DNA of 53,480 bases from a virus (Duplodnaviria; Caudoviricetes): the IMG/VR virus record IMGVR_UViG_3300042347_000977, positions 1 through 53,480 of that record; one strand, 5' to 3'. Positions 28,105-45,917 of this stretch are shown piece after piece (position 1 is the stretch's first letter; each line of letters starts with the position of its first letter). Both the position numbers and the translations under genes were made by a program. The notes under the pieces are model-generated. The model made no database searches, had not been told where the DNA came from, and worked only from the letters and a program-made list of their open reading frames with translations.

Positions 28105-29205
28105 TCAAGCATTCCTCGCCTCACGGATCGCGCCTGCAGCCCATGACCTCAAGTGCCGAAGCACACCAGGGCGCGCAGCCCCTTCAGCCATCGAGGCGTA
28201 ATACTTGTTCCTCTTCCCAAGAGCGGCATAGTGCGCCTGCATTTTTGCAGAGTCACCACGCAGCGCACCGACAAGCCCCGGGACTTCATGCAGATGTCGA
28301 TCAGAAGGACTATTCAAAATCTTCTTCATCGCCGGAATCGCATAATCCCCCCGCGCAAACTCAAACCTGGAAAGCCGCTTCTCCTCAGTCCCCATGATCT
28401 CCTCGCGGCGTTCCTCGGGAGTCAGCTTCGGCGGCACGCCTGCCTTCTTCATCATGTCATACCCGCGCTCATTGATCACCAGTTGGCCCTTCACCATCTC
28501 GATGAGGCCGCTCTTGAGCAGCATCGCCCGCTGCGCAGACGACTCATCCGCGCTCGCCGCAGCCTTCAAAGCCGCAAGCACCGCCTCATCCGCCTCGCCA
28601 TCTCCAAACTCCACGATCCGCCCACTACGAGCAGCCAGCTCGCGGGCGGCAAAAGCCGTTTCCTGTTTCTGGCGAGCCAAGCGCCTTGCCTTTCTCTCTT
28701 GCAACAATCGCTCAACACCCATTCCAGCAACCCCGATTCCTAAAACTTGCGTTGCCCTTGGCAAGTGCCGCCACCCCCTTCCAAGCTCCTCAGCAGTTCT
28801 ATGCTGCCATGTGCCAAACCCAGTCAAGGCCGCGCCGCCAGCGACCGCTTCAACCCCAGAAGATTGCTGCCTTTTACCCCCACTTGGCAACTGACCAATC
28901 ACTGCACTCTCATCGCCAGGGATAGCCTCCGGGTGACGCATGAACCAATCCGCACTTCGAGCAACATCACGAGCCTTGGCCTTCCCTTTATACATGGACT
29001 CGGCGGCAGCCTTGGCGCGCATTTCCAAATCATCTCCAAACTCCACGATCCGCCCACTACGGGCAGCCAGCTCGCGCAGCTTGAGTTTTATTCCTCCGTG
29101 TCCTTTGACTCGCTCGCTCCCGCGAGTCTCGCCCCCTTGGGGCCAACCTTCGGTTGCTCTACCTCCCGCCTGCCCCGGCGCTCGGTTGTGGTTAAATTGT
29201 TTCAT
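28105..29205 (-). CDS. Modular basic protein with repeated RELAARSGRIVEFGD motif (putative head cargo polyprotein)
   Basis: 366 aa; motif duplicated as a 46-bp DNA repeat (28599..28644 / 29031..29076); Gly-rich hydrophobic segments. Confidence 0.75.
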   Translation of the reverse strand: MKQFNHNRAPGQAGGRATEGWPQGGETRGSERVKGHGGIKLKLRELAARSGRIVEFGDDLEMRAKAAAESMYKGKAKARDVARSADWFMRHPEAIPGDESAVIGQLPSGGKRQQSSGVEAVAGGAALTGFGTWQHRTAEELGRGWRHLPRATQVLGIGVAGMGVERLLQERKARRLARQKQETAFAARELAARSGRIVEFGDGEADEAVLAALKAAASADESSAQRAMLLKSGLIEMVKGQLVINERGYDMMKKAGVPPKLTPEERREEIMGTEEKRLSRFEFARGDYAIPAMKKILNSPSDRHLHEVPGLVGALRGDSAKMQAHYAALGKRNKYYASMAEGAARPGVLRHLRSWAAGAIREARNA

Positions 29206-29338: not shown

Positions 29339-29848
29339 TTAGCGGAGCTTTAGCGCAAATCGACCGAGCCGCCCAAGCAACCCGGGACGACCAGCCGCAG
29401 AGTTTATGGCGGATTGCCCAGCCATGCCGTAACCGGCCTTGACCTTATCCATAAAGCCCATGCGGCCAAAGTTGCCCAATGCCCCCGCCTTGGCGATTTT
29501 GTAGTTTGCTGCACGCTGAGCAATCGGAGTAGAGCCAACGCGATCCGCCGCAGTCGCTGCCATGGCAGATTTTTTTGCATACTCGTCTGCACCGACGCCC
29601 ATCACAGCCTTATGGCCGCGATAGGCTCCATAGCCAGCGCCACCGACAGCGGCTGCACCTGCACCGGCTTTGACCGCCGTGCCCATGCCCATGCCACCTT
29701 CGTCCTCGACCTCGACAAACTGCCCATTGGCGTCACGCACCATGGCAAATTCCTTGAGCTTTTCAGTGCGAGCCGCCAGCTCGCGAAGCGCAGGCTTGAG
29801 ATCCTTCACTCCGTGTTCTCCGTGTCCTCTGTGGTTAAAATTCTTCAT
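29339..29848 (-). CDS. Basic Gly/Ala-rich protein with LRELAARTEKLKEFA leader (putative head cargo)
   Basis: 169 aa directly after the capsid gene; RDANGQF motif; GAGAAAVGGAGYGAY hydrophobic segment. Confidence 0.75.
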   Translation of the reverse strand: MKNFNHRGHGEHGVKDLKPALRELAARTEKLKEFAMVRDANGQFVEVEDEGGMGMGTAVKAGAGAAAVGGAGYGAYRGHKAVMGVGADEYAKKSAMAATAADRVGSTPIAQRAANYKIAKAGALGNFGRMGFMDKVKAGYGMAGQSAINSAAGRPGLLGRLGRFALKLR

Positions 29849-29922: not shown

Positions 29923-30879
29923 TTACAATCCGGTGGTGATGAGTCGGCCCGAGTTCGGGTTCACGATCTTGATCACGCGATTGCTGCGCACGCGGATCAT
30001 GTCGCCCCTGCGTTTTTCTTCGCGATATTGATCCGTGGTGAACAAGCCGCCTTCGCTGTCAGCATCCCAGATGATCGTGCGGCCTGCGCCACCGTTCATG
30101 AAGTCGCCGCCTTGCACCTCGCCGACCCAGATGTGGCTGTTGCCCCATACTGGCACGACATCGGTTTTACCCTTGATGCCGCGATCGTAGGACTTCTTGG
30201 CGATCACGATGTTCGGGATGCCAAAGGCCTCAGCGACGAGGCTTGGGGTAATGTTTGATCCGCCCTGGGTGGTGTTCAGGTGCCCGTAGAGGTAGGTCTG
30301 GAGCAGCTTGGAGCGCTTCAGGCGGTTGTAGACCGAGAGGCTCATCACGATCGTGTTGGGCTCTTCGCCGTTGAGCGTAAGCGCCTCGATCGTCGCGTTC
30401 AGATCGAACGGGAAGTCGATGGTGTCCAAAAGATTCTCAGTGTAGTTCACTTTTGCAGCGGCCGCTGTGAACACAGCAGGATCCATGATCGCGGCGGCAG
30501 CTTCCACCTCGTAGTCCAACATCAATTTGTTCATGCAGAACTTGGCTGTGACCATATCGGAATCGAAGAAGTCGCGCATTTGTTTGCGGACGGTATCGTC
30601 CACGCGTTTTTCGTGGCCGTATTCCTGAGTCTGGTAGCTGTCCCACTCGAATTGCTCTTCGCTCTCGTTGTAGGTGCCGGTGGCTCCGCGCTTTTGGCTC
30701 TCTTTTTTGAGGAGTTCGCCCTTGCCGATGCGGAAGCGTGGATAGCGTCCGACCTCGCGCTCACTGCCGTAAACGGGCAGGAGGCTGCTGGCGACGAAGT
30801 GTTTTTCCTGGTGGACTGCTTCCATCAAGAGAGTGGAGATGTCCCGCCGTGGAACGGAGTCTGAAGTATTGTATGCCAT
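29923..30879 (-). CDS. Major capsid protein (HK97 fold, lambda gpE-like)
   Basis: 318 aa; F.A..L.P.Y, KR...G, EPNTIVMS..VY..LK, ..FGIP.I......YD, VWG; follows the protease and decoration genes. Confidence 0.88.
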   Translation of the reverse strand: MAYNTSDSVPRRDISTLLMEAVHQEKHFVASSLLPVYGSEREVGRYPRFRIGKGELLKKESQKRGATGTYNESEEQFEWDSYQTQEYGHEKRVDDTVRKQMRDFFDSDMVTAKFCMNKLMLDYEVEAAAAIMDPAVFTAAAAKVNYTENLLDTIDFPFDLNATIEALTLNGEEPNTIVMSLSVYNRLKRSKLLQTYLYGHLNTTQGGSNITPSLVAEAFGIPNIVIAKKSYDRGIKGKTDVVPVWGNSHIWVGEVQGGDFMNGGAGRTIIWDADSEGGLFTTDQYREEKRRGDMIRVRSNRVIKIVNPNSGRLITTGL

Positions 30880-31288: not shown

Positions 31289-32050
31289 TTAGCCCTGGTT
31301 GCGGATCCAATCTTGGTGCGCGTCAGGATTTTCTTTGTGGGCGAGCATCACGGCCTGGGCGTGTGTCTTGCCCTGGTTTTTGTGGTTCTGCACGCGAGCT
31401 TCGAACTCATGGAGTTCGCCGTTTTTGCCATTGATGGCAGCACCCTCGGCGCTGAAGGCCAGCGGGCGGACGCCAGTTTTAAGAGCGTTGCGGAGCGCGT
31501 CGTTTTCGGCGACGAGCTTATCGGCAAATTCCTTAAGCTCGGCGCGCTCGGCGGCGAGTTGGGTCATGTTGCCTTCGATAGTCGAAAAGTAGTGTTCGAT
31601 CTCGTTGTTCTCAGCGGCGGCATCTTCGCGTTCGAAGCGGGCCGAGAGTTCACGGACTTGTTTTTGCAGAGCGGAGAGAGCAGTGCCCTCGGAGCCACCT
31701 GTGGAGCTTTCGACTCCTGCACCAGCACCGGCGAGTTCGCCAGCGGGTTCGTTGCCTTGCTCGCCAGCTTCATCGGCTTCCAGAGCGGCGATGACTTCGG
31801 CTTGGTAGGCTTGGATGCCAGCGGCATCCTCTTCGCTGATCTCTCCAGCTTGGACGAGAGCGGCGATGTCCTGCTCGGTGAGATCCATGATCTCTTCGAG
31901 GGAGATTTCTTCATTGTTCTCCGCACCTTGTTGCAGGGCGGCGATTGTCTCTTGCTGGGCAGCGACCTGCTCAGTAAGCGTGTTCAGGGCCGCCATGACA
32001 TCTTCAAGAGAAGGGCCTGCCGCTGCTTGGGTGTTGTTGGTGTTTTCCAT
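31289..32050 (-). CDS. Nested in-frame scaffold protein (internal start MENTNN)
   Basis: Internal ATG at 32050 has its own GTTGAC 18 nt upstream, like other genes; analogous to lambda C/Nu3. Confidence 0.6.
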   Translation of the reverse strand: MENTNNTQAAAGPSLEDVMAALNTLTEQVAAQQETIAALQQGAENNEEISLEEIMDLTEQDIAALVQAGEISEEDAAGIQAYQAEVIAALEADEAGEQGNEPAGELAGAGAGVESSTGGSEGTALSALQKQVRELSARFEREDAAAENNEIEHYFSTIEGNMTQLAAERAELKEFADKLVAENDALRNALKTGVRPLAFSAEGAAINGKNGELHEFEARVQNHKNQGKTHAQAVMLAHKENPDAHQDWIRNQG

Positions 32051-32593
32051 ACGAGAGTTGTTTGGCGTGTCAACTGAGGCCAGTTGTTTTGTGTCACCTT
32101 CCGGCAGCTTGGCCTCGAAAAGCCCAGAGGGGTTTGCCGCAGGGTTTGCGACCAAATCGACTGAAATGAGTTCGGAGCAACGGGCTTTCTTCTGGCCGTT
32201 TTCCATCTCGTCCTCGCCCATGAATGCGGCCGAGAGGCCCACATTTGCTGGCATGCGCTCGGCCATTTCGATGGCCTGGGCAAAGCGGTCGTGGCTCTTG
32301 AGAAGGTGCCAATCCCCGAGGAGCTTCGCGTCCTCGATGCGGAAATTGTCCAGGTAGCCATTCACGGCATCCGCCCCTGTGCGGTGGTTCCATTTCACCG
32401 GCACCGTGCCGAGCTTTTCGGCACATTCCTTGATCTGGTTGAGCGTCTTCGCATCCACCTCCAGATCGTGCCCGCGCGCCTTCACGCCGCTGGTGATCAC
32501 CGCCACGCCGTGGATCACGCCATTGAGAGCGTCCACCTTCTGCGCGCAGTTATAGGGGGTGTAAAATTCTTTAAGATTTGCTGTCGTCGCCAT
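31289..32593 (-). CDS. Prohead maturation protease with C-terminal scaffold
   Basis: GV.VIT.G..ARGH, V..NH, VGLS..F, ISVDLV.NPAAN..GLF (clan SH prohead protease pattern), followed by an acidic coiled coil. Confidence 0.85.
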   Translation of the reverse strand: MATTANLKEFYTPYNCAQKVDALNGVIHGVAVITSGVKARGHDLEVDAKTLNQIKECAEKLGTVPVKWNHRTGADAVNGYLDNFRIEDAKLLGDWHLLKSHDRFAQAIEMAERMPANVGLSAAFMGEDEMENGQKKARCSELISVDLVANPAANPSGLFEAKLPEGDTKQLASVDTPNNSRMENTNNTQAAAGPSLEDVMAALNTLTEQVAAQQETIAALQQGAENNEEISLEEIMDLTEQDIAALVQAGEISEEDAAGIQAYQAEVIAALEADEAGEQGNEPAGELAGAGAGVESSTGGSEGTALSALQKQVRELSARFEREDAAAENNEIEHYFSTIEGNMTQLAAERAELKEFADKLVAENDALRNALKTGVRPLAFSAEGAAINGKNGELHEFEARVQNHKNQGKTHAQAVMLAHKENPDAHQDWIRNQG

Positions 32594-33367: not shown

Positions 33368-34366
33368 TTAAGAAATTTTCTGACTGCCCTTGAGCAGCAT
33401 CCCCGCGTAGCTCACACCATCGTTGATCGTGACATTGATCATCTGGAACGCGCCGGTCTTGCGAGAGATGAAGCGGATCAAGTAGCCATGCGTCCACTCG
33501 GTCGGGCGCGTGTTGGCATAAAGTGGCTGCCGCTTGCAGAGGCAGCCGGGATTCCATGCGGAGATCAGCCCCAGCCCAGGAATGTTCTTGGGCTTGAAAC
33601 TCGCGCGGTGCGTGTCGAAGTAGCAAATGTTGCCCCCCGCCTTCGCCATAGCCACCTCCGCCGCATCGCGGGCGTTGCTGATCTTGTGGACGAAATACAT
33701 TTTATCCATCTTGACCCATCCCGGCACATCGCAGTCTCCGTGCGTCTTGCCTTGGTGGTAGTATTTGATGCCCCGCTCCGCGAGCTTCAGCACATGCTCG
33801 GCGCAGAAGGTGCGGCGAAGCAGGTCGATATCCTTGTGGTGCGCGAGCCGCTGCGTGAGCGCCCATCTTTCGACCCTCCACTCATGGTTGCCCTCGATGT
33901 AATGAATATCCCCGCAGCCCGAGTGGTGCATCACGGCATCGAGCAGATCGTTCGACACCCGCACATCATCCTCGTAGCTATCCTCCGTCTCGGCCACATA
34001 GCCCAGCGTGTGGTGCTCGGCCAGAAAGCCCCCGCAGTCCAAAAAGTCGCCGCCTATCACGATGCGATCTGGCTGGAGGGTCTTCAAGTCGCCCAGAAAA
34101 GCAGAGAACGCCGCCGGGTCATGTTTGTTCCCATGCACATCCGAAAAAATCACTTCTATAATGTCGCCCGCTCCTGGCTTCGGCGAAGTCGGCTTCGCCT
34201 TCACAATCGGGCGAGTGCCCGTGCGCGCCTTCTCCAGCGCCCGCACCGTCTCCGCGTGAGCCTTGCGCTCCGCATCGAGATCCGCCAGCGCCTGGTCGAG
34301 CTTAGATTTATGATCCGCCGCCTGCGCCGCCTGCGCCACCGCGCCCCATTGGGTTGTTTTTTTCAT
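33368..34366 (-). CDS. Calcineurin-like metallophosphoesterase
   Basis: SDVH, GGDFLD, EGNHE, H, THR motifs; N-terminal coiled coil. Confidence 0.88.
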   Translation of the reverse strand: MKKTTQWGAVAQAAQAADHKSKLDQALADLDAERKAHAETVRALEKARTGTRPIVKAKPTSPKPGAGDIIEVIFSDVHGNKHDPAAFSAFLGDLKTLQPDRIVIGGDFLDCGGFLAEHHTLGYVAETEDSYEDDVRVSNDLLDAVMHHSGCGDIHYIEGNHEWRVERWALTQRLAHHKDIDLLRRTFCAEHVLKLAERGIKYYHQGKTHGDCDVPGWVKMDKMYFVHKISNARDAAEVAMAKAGGNICYFDTHRASFKPKNIPGLGLISAWNPGCLCKRQPLYANTRPTEWTHGYLIRFISRKTGAFQMINVTINDGVSYAGMLLKGSQKIS

Positions 34367-34369
34367 AAA

Positions 34370-35128
34370 TTATTTTTCTTTGCGCTGTGTCAGCCAAGTT
34401 GCGCCGCCACCGCCAGCCACAGCCCCAGCCATCGCGCCGACGCGCATCGCCTGCACCTGGCGGCTCACCGCCTTGCCCGTGCCGATGCCACGCGCATACG
34501 ACTCGCAGTTGTTTGCTCCCGCTGGGCACACACTCTTCCGGTCCCAGCGCTTGTCGGCCTGCGAAGCCTCGTAGCGTTTGTTGAAAGCCTCCACCTCGGC
34601 ATCGTTCATCGTGCCAGCGCGCCCCTCCGCACGCTGCGGGATACCCCGCTCACGCAGCACCTTGCCATCGTTGTCGATATACACCTTCTTGCCGAATTCC
34701 GCCTGATCCACAATTTTGCGTCCACGCGATTTGCTCACCTCGGCGATCCGCCCACTGCCCACACCCACGCCATAGTGCCGCTGCGGCACGCCCAAGAACT
34801 CATCCGCCTTCAGCGCCGCACGCGAGAGCGCACCCTTCACGCCCGCCGCCTCGCGATTCTTCCGCAGCACGCCGCGCAAACTCCGCCCATTCGGCAAATG
34901 AATGATCTCCGCAGGCGTGGTGAGCCCTTGGTTGTTATAGACCACCTTGCCAAGAAGAGATTCCCCCTCCTGAACCAAGCGACCCTTCGGCAGCAAACGC
35001 GGCAGCGTGCGCATCCCCACCAAACCACCCGCCGCGACACCAGCCCCAATCAAAGCCGCACGGCCCACGCCGCTGCGCTTCTCCTCGGACTTCGCCGCCA
35101 GCTCCTTGAGTCGGGATTTAAGGTTCAT
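34370..35128 (-). CDS. LRAT-like (permuted NlpC/P60) domain protein with LKELAAK leader
   Basis: HYGVGVG.G.I and NNCESYA....TG...S.QV followed by a hydrophobic tail; start overlaps the upstream TGA. Confidence 0.75.
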   Translation of the reverse strand: MNLKSRLKELAAKSEEKRSGVGRAALIGAGVAAGGLVGMRTLPRLLPKGRLVQEGESLLGKVVYNNQGLTTPAEIIHLPNGRSLRGVLRKNREAAGVKGALSRAALKADEFLGVPQRHYGVGVGSGRIAEVSKSRGRKIVDQAEFGKKVYIDNDGKVLRERGIPQRAEGRAGTMNDAEVEAFNKRYEASQADKRWDRKSVCPAGANNCESYARGIGTGKAVSRQVQAMRVGAMAGAVAGGGGATWLTQRKEK

Positions 35129-36999
35129 GCCAGTAATCCCTTCACTGCACGCGACGGAAGATCCCCTTTCGGAGCAGGAATTACCTCCCAAGCACCACGC
35201 CGCGAACGATATTTTTTAGCAAGGTTGCCTGTCGCCTTTAAGATTTTGGAGCGATTGGCCGCGATAGCGATTGCACCTGCAATTCCAGCAAGACCAGGAG
35301 CAATTTTAGCGAGGGCCAGACCTGTATCGTCTCCAGCATTGGAAAGCAGCCCCTCCCTCTTCAGCGCTCGATCCTCCAATTTATTGATTTTTGGTTGCAT
35401 CGCCGCACGCCCCGCCAAAAGACCAGCCGCACCGAGGATTGCAGCCTTCTTATTGACTCCACGCTTTCCAAACAACACCCCGCCGCCCGCCAATCCAACA
35501 CCAGCCCCACCGAGAGCGGCGAGAGGATAAGAGCTAATATTGTCTTTGATATATTCAGCCCTGCGAATGTTGTTTACCGCATTTTTATCGGCAAGGCGGT
35601 CGTATTCACTGTTGGAAAACTCTTGCGATTTCAACCTCTCAGCACGATCTGGCACAGCCTGCTTCTTACCACCGACCAAGGCATTCACGCCAAAAACAGC
35701 GCCAGCGGGTATCCCAATAATTGCGGCCCGCTTCAAAATAGCCTTTCCTCGCACATTTTTAATACGAGAGCCGGATTTTATAGCGTTCAAAACACTTGCA
35801 CGCGGAAGGATTTTTTCACCGGCATAAGCCGCAACCGGCACGGCGGCGGCCGCTGCCAAAAACCCAGGAGCAGAATGCTTGAGCGCATCACGCTTGCGAT
35901 ACTCCACGCCCTTGTTTCCGTAATACTGCTGGGTCTCTATACCTTGGAGGGCATTCGGATACCCCCCCGTGATATAGCCAATATAACCACCTGTCCGCCA
36001 CTCGTCGGACTTCGCCGCCAGCTCCTTGAGACCTTGCAAATCCTCTTCAAAAATCCTGGAAGCCACCTTCTTGAAAGTCGGGAAGGTCGTGAGCTGCGTT
36101 TTGATCACCTTGCCAGCACGATTAAACCGCGCCGCCGCAACCCGCGCCGAGCGAGCCGCCTTGCGAGCCTCGGCAGAGGTCTTGAGCGCGTCATCCGTGA
36201 GCGTCTGCGCGCTCTTGGCCGCCTGCGCTCCGCGAAACCCTGCGTAGGCCACGCCTCCACCAGCACCCAAAGCGCCGATCCCGAGCGCCGCATTACGAAA
36301 ATCTCTGCCTGCCTGCCCCGGCTCCGCAGGCTGCGCCTGCACCGCATAGGGATCAAAGGGCGAAACACGAGCCAACTCGCGCAAGCGGAGTTTGGCGGAA
36401 AAGTCTTTCTCGCGCGTCGCAAGATACCCAGCCCCCGCGCCAGCACCCACCACGCCTGCGCCGACACCAATCGAAATGTTACGGCGGCGAACGCCTTCAT
36501 TGATGAGTTTTCTGGCTCGCCGCACATCATACTTAGCATAAGTGCCGCGCGCAATAGCCCTATGCCTCATCCCGCTTTCAATCTTATACTGAAGGTGAGG
36601 GTCACTGTAAGGGAACTTGTTCTGCTTGACGGCATCAGCGCGGTAAGCGTCTCTCAACGACCTGTTGTATTTCGCTGCATCCAACGCCTCGCGCCCAGCC
36701 TTGATCTGCGCCATTCCCGTGAGATCGGAAATTTTATTGAGAATCGAGAACTCCTTCACCCCTCCGTGCTCTCCGTGTCCTCCGTGGTTAAACCTCGAAA
36801 GCCCCCTCTGCTCCTGCGGCACGCTTTCCTCCACGCCACGGCGCAGGCCGATGGCTCGGCGGAGTTTCTCGGCGAGAGTCGCCTTACGCGCCTCGATGAT
36901 CTGCGGATTGTAAGCCGCAGAGGTGGTGTTGGCGTCCATGCCGCCGCCAGACTCGGGGGCAAACTGGCCGTTGTTGTTGCGTGGTCTTGAGTCGTTCAT
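35125..36999 (-). CDS. Modular polyprotein-like head-region protein (~624 aa)
   Basis: Junction motifs VKEFS, FSAKLRLRELA, LKELAAK and SQEFS separate modules with GxxxG hydrophobic segments. Confidence 0.75.
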   Translation of the reverse strand: MNDSRPRNNNGQFAPESGGGMDANTTSAAYNPQIIEARKATLAEKLRRAIGLRRGVEESVPQEQRGLSRFNHGGHGEHGGVKEFSILNKISDLTGMAQIKAGREALDAAKYNRSLRDAYRADAVKQNKFPYSDPHLQYKIESGMRHRAIARGTYAKYDVRRARKLINEGVRRRNISIGVGAGVVGAGAGAGYLATREKDFSAKLRLRELARVSPFDPYAVQAQPAEPGQAGRDFRNAALGIGALGAGGGVAYAGFRGAQAAKSAQTLTDDALKTSAEARKAARSARVAAARFNRAGKVIKTQLTTFPTFKKVASRIFEEDLQGLKELAAKSDEWRTGGYIGYITGGYPNALQGIETQQYYGNKGVEYRKRDALKHSAPGFLAAAAAVPVAAYAGEKILPRASVLNAIKSGSRIKNVRGKAILKRAAIIGIPAGAVFGVNALVGGKKQAVPDRAERLKSQEFSNSEYDRLADKNAVNNIRRAEYIKDNISSYPLAALGGAGVGLAGGGVLFGKRGVNKKAAILGAAGLLAGRAAMQPKINKLEDRALKREGLLSNAGDDTGLALAKIAPGLAGIAGAIAIAANRSKILKATGNLAKKYRSRRGAWEVIPAPKGDLPSRAVKGLLA

Positions 37000-39900
37000 G
37001 GTGTTTTCCAATTTTTTAAAATCTCGGCGGCTTCTTTTGCTGAGGGCGGGCGGTCTACAAACTTGCTCGGATCGATCGGCTTTTTCAAAAACCGCGAAGG
37101 GATGAGCGACTTGCCGGAGACGAGGCGTTGGCCGACGAGCATGGCCCCTGCGCCGCCGAGGGCGCTGGCTACGAGGCCTGCCTTCCAGAGCTTGCGCTCG
37201 TTTTCCGTCTTCTCATACCACTCCTTCGGGCGGCGTTCGCGGCGGCGGCTGCCAGGGGCAAAGACCCGTGCCGAGCGGCCACGCGGATCGCGGACATCCC
37301 ACCCTTCGTATTCCGCGATCGCATCGAGTTCGCGGAGCCTCTTCAGCTTTGCGGAGAATGCTTTTTTCGCGGTGACTTTGGTGAGGCCTTTCAAAATGTT
37401 CCCGCCGATCTCCGAGAGGCCATCCTTCGTAGCGCGCAGGCTTGCCTGGGTATTTGTGTAGGCTTTGCCGATCTTGGTATCCGGGTTGTTATTGGCATAG
37501 CGCACGGTGGCGAGCCCGCCCAATCCAGCCGCTGTCATGCCGATCTCGGTGGCCTTATTTTGGAACCAGCTTTTCTCCCACTCACGCTTCTTGATGCGCC
37601 CGCTGGCATCGCGCTCGCGTTCCTTACCTTGAAGGACTGCCGCCGCATCTCTCGTGAGCCGACCGCCGCGCTGCACAGTGACTCGCTTATTTTTCGCCTC
37701 GCGAGCTATCGAGTTCCAGAGCTGACCCGAACTCGGATCCCAGTTCACGCGAATCGCCTCGCCAGTCTCCTTATCCCGCACGACGCGGCCCGCGCTGTCG
37801 CGCTTGGCGACATACATCGGACGGTCGTTCGCCCAGCCCCAAGCAGGGTGTGCAAATTGCGAGTCTTCGTTGGACCGCACTCCACCGCCCTGCCGGGCAT
37901 CCCAGCGAGGTTGGTCGGAGCGGCCAAATTCCTTTGGCTCATCGAGCTTTTTCCAGCCCTTGTTCGACGGGCCATAGTAGCGAGATGCCGCCACCGAGGC
38001 TCCGACACCGGCCCCTGTGAGACCAATCGCCGTGCCATTCCGCTTCGCCCATCCGCCCACCGCCTTGGCGGCACGCTTGGCTGTATCCGCCATAGCGGAA
38101 AACTCGCGAAGTTTGATTTTTGTAGAAAACTTTTTCATATCCTTTCTCAGATTGCGAATCGAGTCCACCTGCTGCCCTTCATCCGCTCCCATGCCGCCGC
38201 CATAAAGCGCACCGCCCACGGCTCCGATCCCTGCGGCCCCCGCCAGAGGGGCCTTACGCAACCACATGGCAGGCCGTGAAAACGGCTCCGACTTCTTGGA
38301 TGCCGCCACAAGCGCCCGCGCTCCACCCCTGGTCTTGCGAAGCAGCAATGCCCCGCCAAGTCCTGCGCCTGCACCCACCAGCGTGCCGCCGATAGCCGCC
38401 CGCTTCATAAAGGGAGCGGACTCCTCCTTGCGCGGATCGCCCACGATCTTGCTGCCGAGCAACGCCCCGCCGCCGACGATACCCGCCGAGGCCAAACCGA
38501 GCTTGCCCGCCGTCTTCGCCGCGCCACGGAATGTCGCCCCACGCTTGAGCAACGCCAGAGAGCCAAGCGCCGCCCCACTGCCAAAGCCCGAGAGCCCAGC
38601 ACCCACATAGGGGTTCATGCCGCGCTTCTCACGATCCCGCTTCTCGAAAAATTTGATAGTGCGGAGGCGGGCGGAAAATCCCTTGAATCCATCTTTCCCA
38701 ATATAGTGATCCTTCCCATCTTGATCCCTATAAATTGAACCGCCGCCTTTTTTGCCATCCCAGCGACCCGCCCAAGACCATCCTTGAGCGCGAAGATGCC
38801 GAGGAATCCGCGCGTTCTCTTTCCTTAAATTCTCTTGCCAGAGCACCTCCCTTTCGGCCTTCCGCTCTGGGGAATTCCAATACTCGGGCGAGTTTTTGTC
38901 GTAAAAACCCGCAGGAGGCCCGAAACGCTTTCCCTCGAAAAATCTGACGCGTATCTTCGCCGCAAGCTGTTTCTCCTTGCGCGTAGCCAAATATCCAGCG
39001 CCAGCACCAGCAGCGGTTAATCCTGCCCCAGATATCACAGCGTCTCGCTTGAAACGATCAGCCGCCTGCTTGCGGTTGTCCTTTGCTATTTTTATGTATC
39101 GTTTCAGCCCAAATGTTCCGAACTTGGGTTGATAGTTTTTGCCAAACATTTCCCGACCATAAGCCGCCGCATCTTGACCAAAAAGTTCCCGAGCCATATC
39201 TGGGTCGTTTCCGTATACGCTTTCAACAGAACGCCGTGACTGGACCCCCGCCCACGCGCTATCCTTTGAGCGCATATCTTTCGCCCACTGAGTGTTAAGT
39301 TTTGCCGTCCGCCGCGCGAAGTGCCCAAAAGGATCATAATCAGTAATCAAATCAATACCCCTTTCTATTACCGGCACGATTTTTGACTTCAACACCCCAA
39401 ACTCTTTCAATCCGCGCAGCTTCGCACTCAAACTCTTCCGCGCTGGCCCCTGCCCACGGCCCTTGCCGTAACGGGATTGCCCAGGCGATTTGCCATCGCG
39501 CCGAGTCCGCACCCAAATGCCACGCGCCATCTGGCTTCGCTCCGTCTCATTCGGCGTGCGCACAGCGACCAACTCATCACCGCCACGCTTCTTTTTCTTA
39601 CGAGCCTCCTCCGCGCTCCGCGCGGCAATGCCTGTATTCCGCCCCTTGAAGTAGTAGAGCCGGTAGTCAAAGTTCTTCACGCCACGCAGGCGAGAGGAAA
39701 GATACTGGAAGCGAAGGGGCGTGAGATCGATCACATCGAGACTACTCGTAACGCCGCCACGCTCCGCCTTGGCGATGAAGTGATGGCCGTCCACCACCTT
39801 GCCATTCAGGATCAGAACGAATTTCTCGCCTTTCTTCAACTGATCGAAAACCATTTTTGCCGCCTTCGCTTTTTCGAGCTTGGAAACATTTGCGCGGGCC

Positions 39901-42074
39901 AGCTTGAGATTCGGAAGGTCCGCCATCATAGCCAGCTCCGAGGCAACCATGCCGTAGTGGATCACCTTATCGCCCGGCTTCGCATTGATAAAGCGAGCGA
40001 TGTCGGCCTGCACATTTTTAGGAAGACCCTCGATCGCCATATCTTCGACATACGCGGCAAACTCCTTCACCCCTCCTCTGTGCCCTCTGTGCCCTCTGTG
40101 GTTAAATTTCTTGTGGTTAAACTTCGCCGCAAACGCCTTCAGCCGCTTACCCGCCAGCCAGGCCGCTGCGCCGAGTCCACCCACGGCGGGGAGCAACTCC
40201 GCGCGCTTGCTGCCGCGATCACGCTCGCCGTAGATGTCGCGGTCGTTATTGGTGAGGGCACGGATGCCGATCACCCCGAGTCCGCCAGCGCCCGCCCCGA
40301 TGAGTGCGCGCTTGCTCGCGCCGATGCGGCCACGAGCCATAAGCCCCGCCAGCGCACCCGCGCCACCGGCGCGCAGGATATTCGCATCGCGGCGATCCAA
40401 GTCCTCATCGCGGAGCTTCTTCACGAAGCGATCCCTCGCCACGCGCCCCGTGAGCGGGATGCCCGCCTCGTCGGTTTGAAATTGATTGAAATAGCGCACG
40501 CGCTGCAAGAGCGCTGAGAGGTTCTTGCCATTCTTTTTGTCGCGCTTCGCCTTGACCTTGGCAGCGAGCCTTTCGGCATAAGAAAGTGGAGCCGCATCTT
40601 TTTTACCTTTCTTGGATTTTGCGGCAGGCTTGGCAGCAGGCTTGTTGGAGCCTGACTTTGCGGCAGACTTCTTGGCGCGCACTTGGGGATTCTCCTTCAG
40701 CTTTGCCTCCCAATCGGCTTCTTCCGCCGAGGCATCCGGTTCATTGATGTCGTCTGCCTCATCCAGATCGTCGAGATCGTCAGCCTCATCGGCATCCTCT
40801 TTTTTGGCCTTGGACTTTTTCTTACCTTTAGGCTTCGGATTGTTTTCCTTCCCTGCCGCGCGAAGTTTATCGCTGAGTCCTTCTGGAAAATCGGATTTCG
40901 GTTTCAGCGAAGCGCGGGCCTCATCGATCACATCGGCAGCGACCTTGCCATTGAATCCCCCGGAGGCGTGAGTGTCTTCCAATTTTTTGCGCAGGGCAGC
41001 ACGCTGCTCGGGCGTTCCTGTGAGCGGAACCTTGCCGACGCCTTTTTTCTCCCAAAATTCCTCATTCGTCGCGCTGGCGACTTTTGGCGCAGGCGCGCCA
41101 TCATCCACACGCCGCACGGACGACTTGATAGCCTCGACGCGGGACGCGGGGGTGGCAGGAGTCTCTGTTTTTGCAACTACGGGAGCCTTTGTTTTCGGAA
41201 CGACTGGCGCTGCGGGCGTGGACGGCACGGGGGCCGTCCCTCCAGACTGAGCGGCGGCAAATTTTGCGACCTTCGCTTGCCGCTTCGCCAGCTTTTGTTG
41301 CCTCGGCGTGAGCTTGCGGGGGGCCTTGGCAGCTTCCGCAGCCGCTGCGATTTCCTCTACTTCGGCAGCGGCATCGGCATTGGATAATGCCCCCTGCTTG
41401 TTGAGATTATCCACTGCCTTGACTTGCTGCGCCGCCGCCCCTTTCACTTTGGGAAGCGTTGGCGGTGGCGTCTGTGGCGGCGGCTGTGGGGAAGGTGTCT
41501 GTGGCGTCTGAGCCTGCGGTGTCTGTGGAGCAGGCTGAACGGACTTCGGGCGGCCACGAGGAGCAGGCGCGACATCCGCGACGTCGGCAGCGGCCTTACT
41601 GGCACGCAGCTTCGAGAGTTCCTCGGCTAGATCCTCGGCTCGCCGCACGGCCCCGCTGTTGCCGACCTTATACAACCCACGACCCAGCAAAGCTCCACCA
41701 CCAAGCAAACCCGCGCCCACGATGCCCGCTTTGATCAACCCGTTGCGTCGCTCTTTCTGCTTCTCCTGAGCAAAATCCTTATCGTAAGGATTTCCGTAAA
41801 AGCCGCCTGGAGGTTGATAATAGCGAAATTCTTTAAGCCTCATACCCAGCCGCCCTCGCGTCAACAGCTTGAATTGCCCATTATCCTCGATGTCGGGCAG
41901 TTCTGGCCAGCGATCCGCCTGCCCGGGATTTGCCTCGCGCAGATACCGACGCAGGGCTTGGCGCGTGCGGTGTTGACCCACCACATTCACGCCAGTCGAT
42001 GCAGGCGGCCTCAGATGGGGCTTGTTTATCAGAATCCTTGCCTTCTCGGCTGCTTTGCGAAGTAATTCACTCAT
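36996..42074 (-). CDS. Giant modular polyprotein-like head-region protein (1692 aa) with a ParB-like module
   Basis: About ten junction motifs, Lys/Arg-rich modules, Gly-zipper segments, VVDGHH. Confidence 0.8.
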   Translation of the reverse strand: MSELLRKAAEKARILINKPHLRPPASTGVNVVGQHRTRQALRRYLREANPGQADRWPELPDIEDNGQFKLLTRGRLGMRLKEFRYYQPPGGFYGNPYDKDFAQEKQKERRNGLIKAGIVGAGLLGGGALLGRGLYKVGNSGAVRRAEDLAEELSKLRASKAAADVADVAPAPRGRPKSVQPAPQTPQAQTPQTPSPQPPPQTPPPTLPKVKGAAAQQVKAVDNLNKQGALSNADAAAEVEEIAAAAEAAKAPRKLTPRQQKLAKRQAKVAKFAAAQSGGTAPVPSTPAAPVVPKTKAPVVAKTETPATPASRVEAIKSSVRRVDDGAPAPKVASATNEEFWEKKGVGKVPLTGTPEQRAALRKKLEDTHASGGFNGKVAADVIDEARASLKPKSDFPEGLSDKLRAAGKENNPKPKGKKKSKAKKEDADEADDLDDLDEADDINEPDASAEEADWEAKLKENPQVRAKKSAAKSGSNKPAAKPAAKSKKGKKDAAPLSYAERLAAKVKAKRDKKNGKNLSALLQRVRYFNQFQTDEAGIPLTGRVARDRFVKKLRDEDLDRRDANILRAGGAGALAGLMARGRIGASKRALIGAGAGGLGVIGIRALTNNDRDIYGERDRGSKRAELLPAVGGLGAAAWLAGKRLKAFAAKFNHKKFNHRGHRGHRGGVKEFAAYVEDMAIEGLPKNVQADIARFINAKPGDKVIHYGMVASELAMMADLPNLKLARANVSKLEKAKAAKMVFDQLKKGEKFVLILNGKVVDGHHFIAKAERGGVTSSLDVIDLTPLRFQYLSSRLRGVKNFDYRLYYFKGRNTGIAARSAEEARKKKKRGGDELVAVRTPNETERSQMARGIWVRTRRDGKSPGQSRYGKGRGQGPARKSLSAKLRGLKEFGVLKSKIVPVIERGIDLITDYDPFGHFARRTAKLNTQWAKDMRSKDSAWAGVQSRRSVESVYGNDPDMARELFGQDAAAYGREMFGKNYQPKFGTFGLKRYIKIAKDNRKQAADRFKRDAVISGAGLTAAGAGAGYLATRKEKQLAAKIRVRFFEGKRFGPPAGFYDKNSPEYWNSPERKAEREVLWQENLRKENARIPRHLRAQGWSWAGRWDGKKGGGSIYRDQDGKDHYIGKDGFKGFSARLRTIKFFEKRDREKRGMNPYVGAGLSGFGSGAALGSLALLKRGATFRGAAKTAGKLGLASAGIVGGGALLGSKIVGDPRKEESAPFMKRAAIGGTLVGAGAGLGGALLLRKTRGGARALVAASKKSEPFSRPAMWLRKAPLAGAAGIGAVGGALYGGGMGADEGQQVDSIRNLRKDMKKFSTKIKLREFSAMADTAKRAAKAVGGWAKRNGTAIGLTGAGVGASVAASRYYGPSNKGWKKLDEPKEFGRSDQPRWDARQGGGVRSNEDSQFAHPAWGWANDRPMYVAKRDSAGRVVRDKETGEAIRVNWDPSSGQLWNSIAREAKNKRVTVQRGGRLTRDAAAVLQGKERERDASGRIKKREWEKSWFQNKATEIGMTAAGLGGLATVRYANNNPDTKIGKAYTNTQASLRATKDGLSEIGGNILKGLTKVTAKKAFSAKLKRLRELDAIAEYEGWDVRDPRGRSARVFAPGSRRRERRPKEWYEKTENERKLWKAGLVASALGGAGAMLVGQRLVSGKSLIPSRFLKKPIDPSKFVDRPPSAKEAAEILKNWKTP

Positions 42075-42334
42075 CGTTTTTTCCCCTTTCCAAAAATAAA
42101 ATCATTCCCCTCCCGACCAAATCCCTTGTGTGCCTCCAGATAGTTCTTCTGCACCCGCCGCCGCTCCGGCGTCTGCCGCCAGAAATACTCGCTCCCCCGC
42201 TCCATATCCCGCTTGAGAGCTTCCATCCAAATCTGCTCCCGCTCCTCCTGCGACAGATACCGCCGCACCCGGCCCGCCTCCTTGAACGACAGGCAACCCG
42301 TGCCCTTTAACGAATTTTGACCTGCTCGACTCAT
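42071..42334 (-). CDS. Small basic hypothetical protein
   Basis: 87 aa with ATGA overlaps at both ends. Confidence 0.6.
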   Translation of the reverse strand: MSRAGQNSLKGTGCLSFKEAGRVRRYLSQEEREQIWMEALKRDMERGSEYFWRQTPERRRVQKNYLEAHKGFGREGNDFIFGKGKKR

Positions 42335-42828
42335 AATCCCCTCCCATAAGCCAACTCCCGCAAGCGCACCTTCGCGGAGAAGATGTTTTTCTTGGTGAAT
42401 CGCGCTGTTTCGCCGCGAGCGGCTCTCGCATCGTCGTAGGCATCGGCCAGCGTATCATGCACATTGTGCGAATGCGGCACGATCGCGCCTTTCGCATAGT
42501 CCGTTTTATCCAGAAAATCCGCCTTGTCCTTGCCAAGCACTTTTTGGCGCAACAAAAAGGTAGTCCTCCACTTCCCTGGACTCTCGATGTCCGGCGATAC
42601 AAGAGTGATGCCGGTCTTCTTGATCTTCGGATAAGAAACATCCCAACGCGTCTCGGCAGGATGAATGACAGGCTTGCCCACAAGCACCCCGCCCTTGGGA
42701 TTCTCGGCAACAAACTTCGCAAGCCGTTTCTTAAAGTCCTTGCCAGCAGCCTCCCACTTCTCGACATCAAAAAAATCCTCATCCGCCAACTTCAATCGCG
42801 GAATCCGCGCTAACTCCCGCAACCTCAT
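42331..42828 (-). CDS. Hypothetical protein bracketed by LRELA motifs
   Basis: Begins MRLRELAR and ends FSAKVRLRELAY; coupled to the portal stop. Confidence 0.7.
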   Translation of the reverse strand: MRLRELARIPRLKLADEDFFDVEKWEAAGKDFKKRLAKFVAENPKGGVLVGKPVIHPAETRWDVSYPKIKKTGITLVSPDIESPGKWRTTFLLRQKVLGKDKADFLDKTDYAKGAIVPHSHNVHDTLADAYDDARAARGETARFTKKNIFSAKVRLRELAYGRGL

Positions 42829-44534
42829 TTCTCCCCCTCCGTGCTCTCCGTGTTCTCCGTGGTTAATTTCTTTGGCCCATCGGGGATCATCTTCTCAGCC
42901 GCATTCCGCTCCACGCCATACAGGTTCATCAGATTGATAATCGCGCTTTCGCGATCCAATATCCCTTCGCCCACATTTTTCAGCAACTCCAAGAGCGGCT
43001 TCACATCCAAGCCCTGCGGAACGAGTCCAGGTGGCGGCGGCTGTGGCGGCTCGGCCATGGCGGCGAGGGCTTGAGTCGGCCCAGGCAGGCGTTGATTGAT
43101 GAGTTCGATCGGCACACCTGTCTCGGTGGCGACCCGTTGCAGGTAAGCCACTTCGCTCGCGCTACGGCGCACCACTTCCTCAAAAGATTGTCCTGTCTCG
43201 GCGATGAGGTCAGTAGCCGTGACGAGTCCGGCAGAGAGAAGCTGGAGATTTGCCGTAGTGTCGTGGCCGTAGTCGCCTGTGAGCGAGCGGCCAAAGCCCC
43301 ATCGGCCACTGCGCCATTTCGGGTGCGCTGGCAAGTCGCCGAGAGAAATACCAAGGCCGATCACGCGATCCCGCAGCGGGTCGAGGGCTTTCTCGCTAAG
43401 AAGTTTCTGGTAGCGGCGGATCGAGCGCATGGCTTGGGCGATTTCGATGCGACCCGTGTGACCCGAGAACGCCGTCATGTCATAAAGGAATCCGTAGGGC
43501 ATATTCAGCCCGCTCGCGATCTCGCGCACCATCACCTGCACCAGCGCCATAAAGGCTCCGCTCGGGCGGTTCGTGCCAGGAGCGAACTGGATGTCCTCGC
43601 CTTGCGAGAGCCGTTGGATTTTCCCTGCCTCCATCGCCATCGTGCCGGGCGAGTCGGGGCGGTTATCCTTCGTGCCATTCCACGCCGAGATGCCGCCATC
43701 GCGCCGAGTGGGGTCTGAAACCTTGATGAATCCCGCATGGCCCACCTGCCACTTCGCGGCGAGCTTCTCAAAGTGATACACCTCATACAAATCCCGCGCA
43801 GGAGCGATCACGGTCGAGAGCGCCGTGACGCCTCGGTATTGATCCACCCGCATCGGGTCGAAGATGTGAATGAACTGGTCGGCAGGGATTTCCTTCTCAA
43901 AGGAATACAAGGCCGTGCGCCGCTCGCGCTTGAAGATGCGGTAGGATACAGGTCGGCCCAAGTCGTCCACGATAACGCCGCCGATGTCGTTGTTGTTGCC
44001 GGGGTTCATCGGGTTGTTCGGATCCCCGATGCGGTCGGCCTCTATACTCTGAATGCGAAGCTGTTGCTTGCCGCCCTCCTCGATCTGCACCAAGTGCCAG
44101 CCGTGATCGCCGTCGACCAGCAAGCTCCACATCGCCATCCACACCAACGCGCCAAGCCGGTGACGGCCAGTAATATCCGCCTGCTCGCACCAGGCATGGA
44201 AATAGTCCTGATACATCGAATCGATCTCCTCATCCCCCGTTTGCGACACATACTGGACGGTATCCGCCGTGTATTGGACGATGCGCGAAATGATGCCGCG
44301 CAGGATCGAAAAATTCCGCACCACATCCCGCGCATCCCACAAGAGCACAAGACGATCCCGCTGCATCCGCCATGTCTCCGAGGAAGAGTTCTTCTGCCTC
44401 CCGCCGCTGCCCCCGCGATTCGTGCCAGGCTGAGCGGCGTCATACCCGAAAGCCTTCAACCGCTCCCGCGCCATCGCCCGACTCACCCCCGCCTCGGGGT
44501 CAAAAAAAGATACCGCTCGATCAAGAAAGTTCAT
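42825..44534 (-). CDS. Portal protein, lambda family
   Basis: YDAA, AR..VRN, LRIQ.IEADRI, GV..D..GRPV.Y, IH.F...R..QYRGV, IA.GL.MPY. Confidence 0.95.
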   Translation of the reverse strand: MNFLDRAVSFFDPEAGVSRAMARERLKAFGYDAAQPGTNRGGSGGRQKNSSSETWRMQRDRLVLLWDARDVVRNFSILRGIISRIVQYTADTVQYVSQTGDEEIDSMYQDYFHAWCEQADITGRHRLGALVWMAMWSLLVDGDHGWHLVQIEEGGKQQLRIQSIEADRIGDPNNPMNPGNNNDIGGVIVDDLGRPVSYRIFKRERRTALYSFEKEIPADQFIHIFDPMRVDQYRGVTALSTVIAPARDLYEVYHFEKLAAKWQVGHAGFIKVSDPTRRDGGISAWNGTKDNRPDSPGTMAMEAGKIQRLSQGEDIQFAPGTNRPSGAFMALVQVMVREIASGLNMPYGFLYDMTAFSGHTGRIEIAQAMRSIRRYQKLLSEKALDPLRDRVIGLGISLGDLPAHPKWRSGRWGFGRSLTGDYGHDTTANLQLLSAGLVTATDLIAETGQSFEEVVRRSASEVAYLQRVATETGVPIELINQRLPGPTQALAAMAEPPQPPPPGLVPQGLDVKPLLELLKNVGEGILDRESAIINLMNLYGVERNAAEKMIPDGPKKLTTENTESTEGEK

Positions 44535-44538
44535 ACGC

Positions 44539-45363
44539 TCATTGCGGAGCAGTCAACGACTGGCGCGTGTATCCTTGACCAGCCAGCTTGTAGGGCCGTA
44601 TTTTTAACAAATTGTCTCCGTGAACTTGCGTAATCTCCTGCTCAAAAGGGAAAGCATTATTAACGATTGATGCGCCTGATTTTTTTTGTTGATTGCGAAT
44701 TAAATCATTCAGCGATGTAGCATACACGCCAAGCACAGGCTCCTGCCCCGTAAGATATTCACGACTCACGGCTGGATTAACTGAAGTGCTTATAGCATCT
44801 CCGGTATTTTGGGAAATATGCGACCTCATCGGCCCCTCATTATCGATTCCCGCCCGCTTTAATTTGACTCTTGATTTTGCAGATTTACTATACTTTTGCC
44901 TGATTTTCTCAGGGAACCCCTCGCTCGCCAACCCCTTGCTATATTCGCCGCTTAATACAAAAGCATCATGCCTTGGAGTCCTTAAAGAATCCACTGTATC
45001 AGCCCCCCGATAATGCAAGATAGATTTTTTCCCGTCGATATCTACCAACTTCGGAGTAACCGGATTCCATACCTTGGCCCAAGCGTGAGCGCCTGTCGTA
45101 TGATTAAAAACCGGCATCGCAGCGGTCTGCGGACGCGAAACGCCAAATACACCGCGCACAGCCTGCCTGTCCCCGCCCTTTTCCAATTTACGCCGCAAAG
45201 ATTTAAGAATCGGGTCAGCAACTTTTCGCGGCACAGGGCTGATATTAAGAACCTTCCCACTAACAGACTGCACTCGCGCCAACTCCACCAACCGCCCGCT
45301 CACCTGCGCCAACTCGCGCAACCTCTCTCTGTGTCCTCTGCGTCCTCTGTGGTTAATCATCAC
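44539..45363 (-). CDS. ADP-ribosyltransferase (R-S-E class) with RELA leader
   Basis: HYRG, ISTS and FEQEI in the order and spacing of cholera/LT/pertussis-type ARTs. Confidence 0.75.
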   Translation of the reverse strand: MMINHRGRRGHRERLRELAQVSGRLVELARVQSVSGKVLNISPVPRKVADPILKSLRRKLEKGGDRQAVRGVFGVSRPQTAAMPVFNHTTGAHAWAKVWNPVTPKLVDIDGKKSILHYRGADTVDSLRTPRHDAFVLSGEYSKGLASEGFPEKIRQKYSKSAKSRVKLKRAGIDNEGPMRSHISQNTGDAISTSVNPAVSREYLTGQEPVLGVYATSLNDLIRNQQKKSGASIVNNAFPFEQEITQVHGDNLLKIRPYKLAGQGYTRQSLTAPQ

Positions 45364-45899: not shown

Positions 45900-45917
45900 G
45901 CCCACAACGCATGGCGG

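Follow-up and report, generated by a model that had tools for sequence, protein, structure and literature searches.

A short label of putative head cargo proteins recurs, in weaker form, in a predicted protease-scaffold fusion of an uncultured phage

Introduction

What does a short motif do that stands both on the presumed cargo of a phage head and on the protease-scaffold that would build that head? The question is raised by the window analysed here, the whole 53,480-base stretch of an IMG/VR virus record (IMGVR_UViG_3300042347_000977; estimated completeness 56%), in which at least eight proteins of the head module carry a recurring motif, called the label below, at their N-termini, at module junctions and sometimes at their C-termini. 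A first-pass annotation had reported that the motif also occurs in a 434-residue open reading frame (ORF) that it took for the head protease joined to its scaffold, and had proposed that the motif is the protease site, a helix mimicking the scaffold for co-assembly, or both. The analysis described here confirmed that observation in part and gave the interpretation partial support. We tentatively favour, at slightly less than an even chance, a reading in which the label is a Phe-centred docking signal resembling the capsid-targeting sequence (CTS) of phage T4, which would bring cargo and protease-scaffold alike into the prohead core and which, in this clade, would overlap a cut site of the gp21 type, hydrophobic-x-Glu.

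Results

The cargo label has two halves. The first is an amphipathic helix, [F/L]-S-A-K-L-R-x-L-[K/R]-E-L-[A/S]-A-[K/R], and the second, about ten residues on, is a short anchor of the form hydrophobic-x-E-F followed by a small residue; L-R-E-L-A-A-R-S-G-R-I-V-E-F-G is an example of the full unit. A family-wide matrix was built from 193 distinct label copies, all from outside the protease-scaffold. Among these copies position -4 is R in 49%, position -3 is L in 73%, V in 14% and I in 9% (L/V/I 96%), position -2 is R or K in 71%, position -1 is E in 83%, position 0 is L in 50% and F in 49%, and position +1 is A in 49%, with [F/L]-[S/A]-A-[K/R] standing upstream of this core. When the window was scanned with the family matrix, 22 matches of at least 10 bits were found in eight head-module ORFs (12.6-28.4 bits, 19 of them at 17 bits or more); one match above this threshold lay in the protease-scaffold and none in the 35 other ORFs of the window. 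For the simpler pattern hydrophobic-[K/R]-E-[F/L] the counts are 12 in 3128 cargo residues and 2 in 11,380 other residues.

The label was present across 54 related viral loci and eight genome loci. It lies within the first 40 residues in 32 of 87 distinct label-bearing ORFs, and its density per 1000 residues is 12.4 at N-termini and 4.1 over the last 25 residues, against 3.0 internally. Modules that are joined in one protein in some relatives are separate in others, with labels flanking the split. Among 22 orthologs of the 169-residue cargo protein (42-93% identity), L21, E23, L24, A25, A26 and E33 show no variation and at least 90% of the sequences retain F34, while the flanks vary and from 3 to 40 residues precede the invariant block; in a low-confidence model of this protein (mean pLDDT 49), a helix spanning residues 18-33 ends at the Glu. 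A shorter form of the tag opens many cargo relatives: 23 of 63 relatives of the 169-residue protein begin with M-K-(K/R)-L-H-E-F or similar (hydrophobic-x-[E/F]-F within the first 12 residues), and M-K-L-H-E-F is also among these opening tags. MKNF and MKQF were considered as minimal labels but rejected, since many relatives have Ile in place of the Phe; at the start of the 169-residue protein MKNF is not conserved, many relatives reading MKNINH.

The DNA that encodes the label recurs as repeats of 35-49 nucleotides, some of them 98-100% identical. These repeats, together with the occurrence of the label on either side of module splits, are in keeping with the idea that the label is a relic of module shuffling, a junction sequence left by duplication or recombination of cargo cassettes that has no present function in the protein. 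However, the label codons vary synonymously while the residues stay fixed, which argues for selection at the protein level, loci with a protease-scaffold of only 35-40% identity still carry the label, and the block in the 169-residue orthologs is invariant between variable flanks. We therefore regard the relic explanation as very unlikely, and the cargo label is a real protein-level feature.

The identity of the 434-residue ORF given in the first pass, a protease-scaffold, was upheld by its predicted fold. Searches of Pfam and PHROG with the protein gave no match, a Pfam search with 34 family members at E ≤ 5 found no protease family, phmmer found no relative among PDB sequences, and tblastn gave no match in 50,697 GenBank phage records. 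A profile of the family matched only coiled-coil chains in the PDB, over residues 283-380, and found nothing when aligned with T4 gp21 by hhalign (probability 0.5%). In contrast, 23 of 30 language-model matches in the ESM Atlas were Peptidase_S77 (PF03420); because Pfam and hhalign were blank while the language-model features pointed to PF03420, the protein has the gp21 fold and yet stands, by sequence, outside Pfam S77. The family itself is large. We found 347 homologs of the protein at E ≤ 0.001 (among 7999 scored candidates) and, with the protease domain alone, 1693 cluster representatives at E ≤ 1e-3; among the matches listed, most of 150 representatives are 350-480 residues long and have the same layout with the protease domain at the N-terminus.

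An AlphaFold2 model of the protein, computed with 34 homologs as the alignment (mean pLDDT 70.6), contains a confident domain at residues 20-150, helices at 196-277, a long helix at 303-373 and a three-helix end at 396-433; residues 1-15, 157-193, 278-302 and 376-389 are modelled as disordered. Protease (residues 18-158), linker, helices (196-373) and C-terminal helical domain thus lie in a single reading frame. Conservation was counted in two alignments, one of 110 homologs and one of 124 cluster representatives. H70, S121 and D146 are invariant in both (110/110 and 124/124), and H42 is likewise invariant or nearly so. The spacing of the three residues is 51/25, and that of the look-alike stretches in gp21 (NH, GVS and VDAV, taken from the T4 genome) is 55/25. 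The local context of the three residues (N-H, G-L-S and V-D-L-V) also resembles that of gp21; we infer that they are the candidate catalytic Ser-His-Asp triad. From these invariant residues, with their gp21-like context and spacing, we concluded that the protease is of the gp21 fold, and the gene as a whole is predicted to encode a gp21-fold serine protease followed by a disordered linker, a coiled-coil scaffold and a small C-terminal helical domain.

Two conserved places in the linker were considered separately. All 110 homologs have G157, and position 159 is Phe in 98 of them and Leu in 12, but the sequence G-L-F-E-A was rejected as a further label site, as it closes the protease fold (alignments with the herpes proteases reach residues 158-159) and few of the 124 representatives have an aligned Glu after F159. 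M182, conserved together with V174-D175, is present in 98 of the 110 homologs and in 82 of the 124 representatives, and translation of a scaffold-only product might begin there, as it does in nested genes of this kind; no Shine-Dalgarno-like sequence was found upstream of its codon.

Four places in the protease-scaffold resemble the label: an N-terminal tag and sites b, c and d (Table 1). All the strings named in the first pass are present, namely LSALQKQVRELSA (residues 306-318, 31640-31678, within site b), LAAERAELKEFAD (site c), ELHEFEA (residues 393-399) and the start MATTANLKEFY, and the spacing is identical to that of the cargo, as had been claimed: L(-10), S/A(-9), A(-8), a hydrophobic residue at -3, K/R(-2), E(-1) and F/L(0), as in LSAKLRGLKEF and LAAKIRVRFF. 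The four sites are unequal, comprising one heptad repeat, one clade-specific site and two short F-centred tags. Site b is similar to the opening half of the cargo label (L-R-E-L-A-A-R-S), and its heptad positions L306, L309, V313, L316 and F320 are conserved, the a/d residues persisting across the 124 representatives; E315 is E in 66 of the 110 homologs, and 54 of the 110 score at least 8 bits at site b with the family matrix. At site c, position 356 is Phe in 33 of the 110 homologs and Leu in 29. F397 of site d is F in 105 of the homologs, and among the 124 representatives it is F in 100, Y in 7 and W in 5, while E398 is E in 75. In the N-terminal tag, F10 is F in 102 and E9 is E in 69 of the 110 homologs.

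The N-terminal tag is of the same kind as the MKRLHEFYTAG that opens cargo relatives, and its L7-K8-E9 occupies the same residues as L7-I8-E9 of T4 gp21. Site d shares letters with the M-K-(K/R)-L-H-E-F start of cargo relatives. Taken together, L-K-E-F-Y-T at the N-terminus and L-H-E-F at site d nearly repeat the cargo tag M-K-(K/R)-L-H-E-F-Y-T, and both adjoin segments modelled as disordered; both are too short for matrix scoring. In one relative (L030) the protease opens M-E-L-H-E-F-E-F. Two prophages provide side observations on the same protein. In a Verrucomicrobiales prophage (L059:9989-11191) the protease-scaffold ends in a label, R-L-K-E-L followed by the stop codon (17.3 bits), and in prophage L058 (6062-6442 and 9968-11293) the N-termini of cargo and protease have N-T-Q-L-I-Q in common.

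Sites b and c were scored with a second matrix, built from 19 cargo copies of the window only. It gave 14.1 bits at residue 316 (site b) and 12.4 bits at residue 356 (site c), whereas the maximum in the window ORFs outside the head module was 8.0-8.2 bits, and the 1167-residue tape measure protein reached 4.3. In shuffles of the whole protein 14.1 bits was reached in 0.25% of 2000, and a second score of 12.4 in none of the 2000. When the helix at 303-373 was shuffled with its heptad phase preserved, the top score was matched in 0.18% of 5000 shuffles and the second score in 0 of 5000. The motif is thus present in the protease-scaffold above the level of shuffled sequence, although its copies are weaker than those of the cargo.

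One explanation of these matches is that the label is a cleavage site and nothing else: a gp21-like protease would cut after the Glu of hydrophobic-x-E, with Phe or Leu favoured at P1' and no docking role, and the scaffold and the protease would be cut at the same sites so as to exit the head. The frequencies of E(-1) and L/V/I(-3) in the 193 cargo copies agree with such a site, as do the position of L7-K8-E9, which equals that of LIE-9 in gp21, the labels at module junctions of the 1692-residue protein, and the match of the matrix to G-L-K-E-L-F in T4 gp22, which is a known substrate of gp21. According to two reports, the proteases of gp21 fold from T4, phiKZ, 201phi2-1 and SPN3US all cut after Glu, at L/I-x-E or A/S/G-x-E (PMC5694885, PMC10052503). 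However, Glu is poorly kept at the protease-scaffold sites whereas Phe or Leu is conserved. Among the 124 representatives F10 is F in 101 and E9 is E in 26, L316 is L or F in 87 and E315 is E in 25, and F397 is F, Y or W in 112 and E396 is E in 43. Variants that lack the Glu (V-R-Y-F, V-K-N-F, L-K-A-F) are retained in relatives, a cut would be pointless where 3-6 residues precede the Glu or where the label lies 6-20 residues from the C-terminus, and the long helix that contains sites b and c is modelled with confidence. We consider cleavage as the sole function of the label unlikely. The suggestion of the first pass that Phe/Leu, rather than Glu, may be the key residue holds for these conservation counts, but the variants VRFFE and IKFFE do have a Glu one residue later.

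Another candidate for cutting the label is a host enzyme like Prp, the protease that takes the N-terminal extension off ribosomal protein L27. In Staphylococcus phage 80alpha, Prp trims capsid and scaffold between Phe and Ala, 13-14 residues from the N-terminus and at FF/A in the scaffold (PMC5744158). In the label F(0) is likewise followed by Ala in 49% of copies. Against this, the hosts are Verrucomicrobiota at seven of the eight genome loci, and L27, present in all four related host genomes, lacks an extension and begins M-A-H-K-K-G-Q-G-S. None of these four genomes, which are incomplete metagenome-assembled genomes, gave a match to Peptidase_Prp (PF04327), and neither did the window; we rejected the involvement of Prp as close to impossible.

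The CTS-like docking label with an overlapping gp21-type site fits the conservation of hydrophobic -3 and Phe 0 and the lesser conservation of Glu. The label would act as the CTS of T4 does. The hydrophobic residue at -3 and the Phe or Leu at 0 would dock the labelled protein on the scaffold core during prohead building, and the overlapping hydrophobic-x-Glu would serve in this clade as a gp21-type cut site that frees the modules. The short anchor also stands at the N-terminus of the protease-scaffold (L-K-E-F) and where the C-terminal domain begins (L-H-E-F), so that this protein would follow the cargo rule for loading and probably for trimming. Sites b and c are mainly coiled-coil heptads and may offer a packing surface for cargo helices. 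The fold, the label, its distribution and its conservation are observations; docking, the docking partner and cleavage are what we infer from them.

Several results weigh against this reading, and many of them favour an alternative in which the matches in the protease-scaffold are structural by-products, L/E/K/R-rich heptads and core Phe residues, and the true label is found in cargo only. With the family matrix, site b scores 9.1 and site c 12.6 bits, compared with 17-28 for most cargo copies. Unrelated helical proteins score as well: T4 gp22, an unrelated scaffold, reaches 12.3 bits at G-L-K-E-L-F, and one tape-measure-like protein, in 20,951 residues of tail ORFs, reaches 15.0. Site b keeps only its a/d heptad residues across the 124 representatives, and site c is clade-specific, its segment being absent in 33 of the 110 homologs. 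Conservation of F397, V401, the heptad residues and G-L-F159 could reflect no more than a hydrophobic core. Co-variation of site b with the cargo label was mixed across clades: loci L013, L019 and L056 have V-R-M-L-Q-A-R-L at site b but R-L-R-E-L-S-A-R-S in their cargo, so that the two do not co-vary, and in the clade L010-L016 the two are alike, with E-L-S-A-R in both. Co-variation of the N-terminal tag and site d within 101 proteins was not significant (68 identical flanking positions vs 59.8 ± 6.1 in shuffled pairs, P 0.10).

Three further points count against the favoured reading. Labels at the extreme C-terminus, 9 of 185 matches, make little sense as cut sites; the S77 family of Pfam and the hhalign comparison with gp21 are blank, as described above; and the T4 parallel misses the central point of the finding, because T4 gp22 and gp21 hold no hydrophobic-x-E-F. 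A complex prediction with protease residues 1-175, scaffold residues 296-434 and residues 1-55 of the 169-residue cargo protein gave 0.06 and 0.01 against a mark of 0.32 and is neutral on binding.

In opposition to the by-product explanation, the heptad-preserving shuffles rarely or never reached the observed scores, the N-terminal tag and site d are near-repeats of the cargo tag M-K-R-L-H-E-F-Y-T, and the N-terminal tag lies in a disordered segment and not in a core. The L030 protease start and the N-T-Q-L-I-Q common to cargo and protease in L058 also speak against it. We therefore hold that the matches are rather unlikely to be structural by-products, and the finding of the first pass that cargo and protease-scaffold have the label in common was upheld.

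Table 1. Positions in the window of the protease-scaffold fusion, its label-like sites, the labelled cargo proteins and other features of the head module
Feature	Position	Strand	Remarks
Protease-scaffold fusion gene, 434 residues	31289..32593	-	ORF; identity from fold
N-terminal tag A-N-L-K-E-F-Y, residues 5-11	32561..32581	-	in segment modelled as disordered (residues 1-15, pLDDT <50)
Predicted protease domain, residues 18-158	32120..32542	-	T4 gp21 / herpesvirus assemblin fold
Candidate triad H70, S121, D146	32384-32386, 32231-32233, 32156-32158	-	conservation and gp21-like context
Disordered linker, residues 157-193	32015..32125	-	pLDDT <50; conserved G157-L-F159, V174-D175, M182
M182, in linker	32048-32050		possible start of scaffold-only product
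Long coiled-coil scaffold helix, residues 303-373	31475..31687	-	AlphaFold2 helix, pLDDT 84-90
Site b, L-S-A-L-Q-K-Q-V-R-E-L-S-A-R-F, residues 306-320	31634..31678	-	start of long helix
Site c, L-A-A-E-R-A-E-L-K-E-F-A-D, residues 346-358	31520..31558	-	mid-helix
Site d, G-E-L-H-E-F-E-A-R-V, residues 392-401	31391..31420	-	first turn of C-terminal three-helix domain
C-terminal three-helix domain, residues 396-433			helices 396-406, 411-421, 423-433 in model
366-residue cargo	28105..29205	-	3-4 label copies (24.0, 25.3, 23.8 bits), two of them identical, R-E-L-A-A-R-S-G-R-I-V-E-F-G-D
169-residue cargo	29339..29848	-	bipartite label at residues 17-34 (18.7 and 27.8 bits)
Calcineurin-like metallophosphoesterase	33368-34366	-	PF00149, E 7.7e-6; phrog_221, E 1.8e-15; no label; between cargo genes and protease-scaffold
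273-residue ORF, cargo	34370..35128 from probable start M22 (ORF 34370-35191)	-	starts M-N-L-K-S-R-L-K-E-L-A-A-K-S, 25.5 bits
628-residue cargo	35125..37011	-	three pattern copies (residues 88, 213, 331), two of at least 10 bits with family matrix
1692-residue polyprotein-like cargo	36996..42074	-	9-10 labels: residues 83, 529, 648, 672, 802, 892, 1046, 1143, 1325, 1583
165-residue ORF	42331..42828	-	label at both ends: start M-R-L-R-E-L-A, end F-S-A-K-V-R-L-R-E-L-A-Y-G-R-G-L (17.8, 21.2 bits)
165-residue ORF with 22 preceding in-frame codons	42331-42866		no start codon in added stretch
Two ORFs upstream of portal, 274 and 181 residues	44539..45905	-	label at each N-terminus (22.9, 23.4, 20.8 bits)
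274-residue cargo	44539-45363	-	Y-R-G, S-T-S and E-Q-E stretches
181-residue cargo	45360-45905	-	H-E-I-V-H (HExxH) stretch
Second motif, five DNA copies	29790-29838, 36743-36791, 40057-40105, 42818-42866, 45308-45356		49 nucleotides, 65-100% alike

All genes of the window lie on the minus strand. The 181- and 274-residue ORFs come first in the order of the head module and are followed by the portal gene (lambda family, PF05136, E 4.9e-49), ORFs of 165 and 87 residues, the 1692-, 628- and 273-residue ORFs, the metallophosphoesterase gene and two small ORFs; the protease-scaffold gene, a 134-residue ORF, the major capsid protein gene (29923-30879; phrog_1005, E 1.4e-33) and the 169- and 366-residue ORFs come last. 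Given the host phylum and the lambda-type portal, this is not a T4-like phage; one of the eight genome loci lies within a 1.95-Mb contig. The portal carries R-L-K-A-F-G at residues 25-30, conserved among related portals and below 10 bits with the family matrix, and the 1692-residue protein carries RLKAFA; both had been pointed out in the first pass. A literature search on cleavage of the lambda portal found no paper.

In the 1692-residue protein the labels alternate with Gly/Ala-rich hydrophobic stretches, a Pro/Gln-rich tract and a Lys/Asp-rich tract, and cuts at ten labels would yield pieces of about 24 to 446 residues. The start of the 273-residue ORF at M22 corresponds to the Met at which its ortholog in locus L004 begins. 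Residues 138-241 of this ORF, with an N-C-E stretch among them, weakly match an LRAT / NlpC-P60-like family (PF04970, E 0.19), and the ORF may encode a cell-wall hydrolase among the cargo. In the 274-residue protein the Y-R-G, S-T-S and E-Q-E stretches stand in an order that we take to be the ADP-ribosyltransferase pattern; Alt of T4 is a CTS-loaded enzyme. Neither the ADP-ribosyltransferase idea nor a peptidoglycan-hydrolase idea, raised for two cargo proteins, had support from Pfam. The 181-residue protein, which had no Pfam match at E ≤ 5, could on the strength of its HExxH stretch be a small metalloprotease packed in the head.

A second motif, F-N-H-R-G-H-G-E-H-G-G, usually followed by V-K-E-F, recurs in the module, and its Phe is often Ile in relatives. 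Its His/Gly pattern might bind metal. The ATG of the 165-residue ORF overlaps the stop codon of the portal gene, and the in-frame codons that precede it encode a His-rich stretch, N-H-G-E-H-G-E-H-G-G, as in three cargo proteins, in frame -1 relative to the portal. This stretch could be a relic of module exchange, or could point to an unusual start or to a frameshift product joined to the portal.

Discussion

The nearest known analogue of the label would seem to be the CTS of T4 rather than a cleavage site alone. In T4, as we read from NC_000866, ipII and ipIII begin M-K-T-Y-Q-E-F and ipI begins M-K-T-F-K-E-F, so that the internal proteins IPI-III, like the cargo relatives described here, have a short N-terminal tag, M-K-x-(hydrophobic/aromatic)-x-E-F; the likeness is short and could be convergent. 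The gp21-fold protease and its L-x-E at residues 7-9 are a second point of likeness. According to a T4 review (PMC9026906), the first 10 residues suffice for loading, targeting is set by residues 4 and 7 and processing by residues 8 and 10, and the L-I-E of gp21 that ends at residue 9 may be an autocleavage or a targeting element. Targeting by hydrophobic or aromatic positions and processing at a neighbouring hydrophobic-x-Glu, reported there for T4, would thus be paralleled in the present system. Unlike the T4 tag, the tag described here ends a longer helical label that is also internal and occurs up to ten times in the 1692-residue protein; the protease is fused to the scaffold, and the scaffold contains look-alikes of the tag that are lacking in T4; and the T4 cut site (I-A-E) follows the tag, whereas here it would overlap it.

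Giant phages offer a different parallel. In SPN3US (gp245) and phiKZ (gp175), whose proteases are placed in MEROPS S80, many of the head and ejection proteins have sites at which a gp21-related protease can cut; the protease also processes itself, and long propeptides receive several cuts (PMC10052503, PMC5694885). The motif given in these reports is A/S/G-x-E, with only a preference for Ser after the cut (PMC10052503, PMC5694885), and neither a helical label nor a Phe anchor is described for these phages, in which the protease is not fused to a scaffold.

A protease and a scaffold in one frame are found in the nested genes UL26/UL26.5 of herpesviruses and C/Nu3 of lambda; here M182 is conserved as a possible internal start, with no ribosome-binding sequence. 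Herpes scaffolds of the assemblin, UL26/UL26.5 type undergo cleavage where the protease joins the scaffold and close to the C-terminal tail that binds the capsid, with Ala/Ser around the cut, and these places presumably correspond to the linker at residues 157-193 and to site d of the present protein. The Prp/L27-type motif of 80alpha resembles the label in that one short N-terminal motif ending in Phe stands on scaffold, capsid and other proteins, and the 80alpha scaffold requires its N-terminal sequence for assembly even without cleavage (PMC5744158). The enzyme of 80alpha is, unlike the protease described here, a host cysteine protease, and the four likely host genomes gave the negative Prp and L27 results reported above.

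In a broader version of the docking proposal, the label would be a general, portable head-loading code of a large group of uncultured phages (a family of at least 1693 clusters). The cargo helices would copy and pair with the conserved heptads with which the scaffold coiled coil begins, at site b; labelled modules would co-assemble, and the fused gp21-fold protease would release them. We think it improbable that the broader version holds in full; if it were true, phages could string many ejected modules into polyproteins and swap them freely.

No paper on this protease-scaffold family or on the label was found in searches of open-access texts. The fold-based name offers an identity for a large family of Verrucomicrobiota phages and prophages that Pfam and PHROG leave unannotated. 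Testable rules would follow from the docking proposal, namely Phe for loading and Glu for cutting, and the label could be put to practical use in loading foreign proteins into capsids, as has been done with the tag of T4. How proteins are chosen for packing into a phage head is understood in detail only in T4, and the set of tagged modules is far richer here than in T4, including as it does the 1692-residue protein with its roughly ten labels. If a second, unrelated phage group combined a tag like that of T4 with a gp21-fold protease, such addressing of head proteins would be shown to be old or recurrent.

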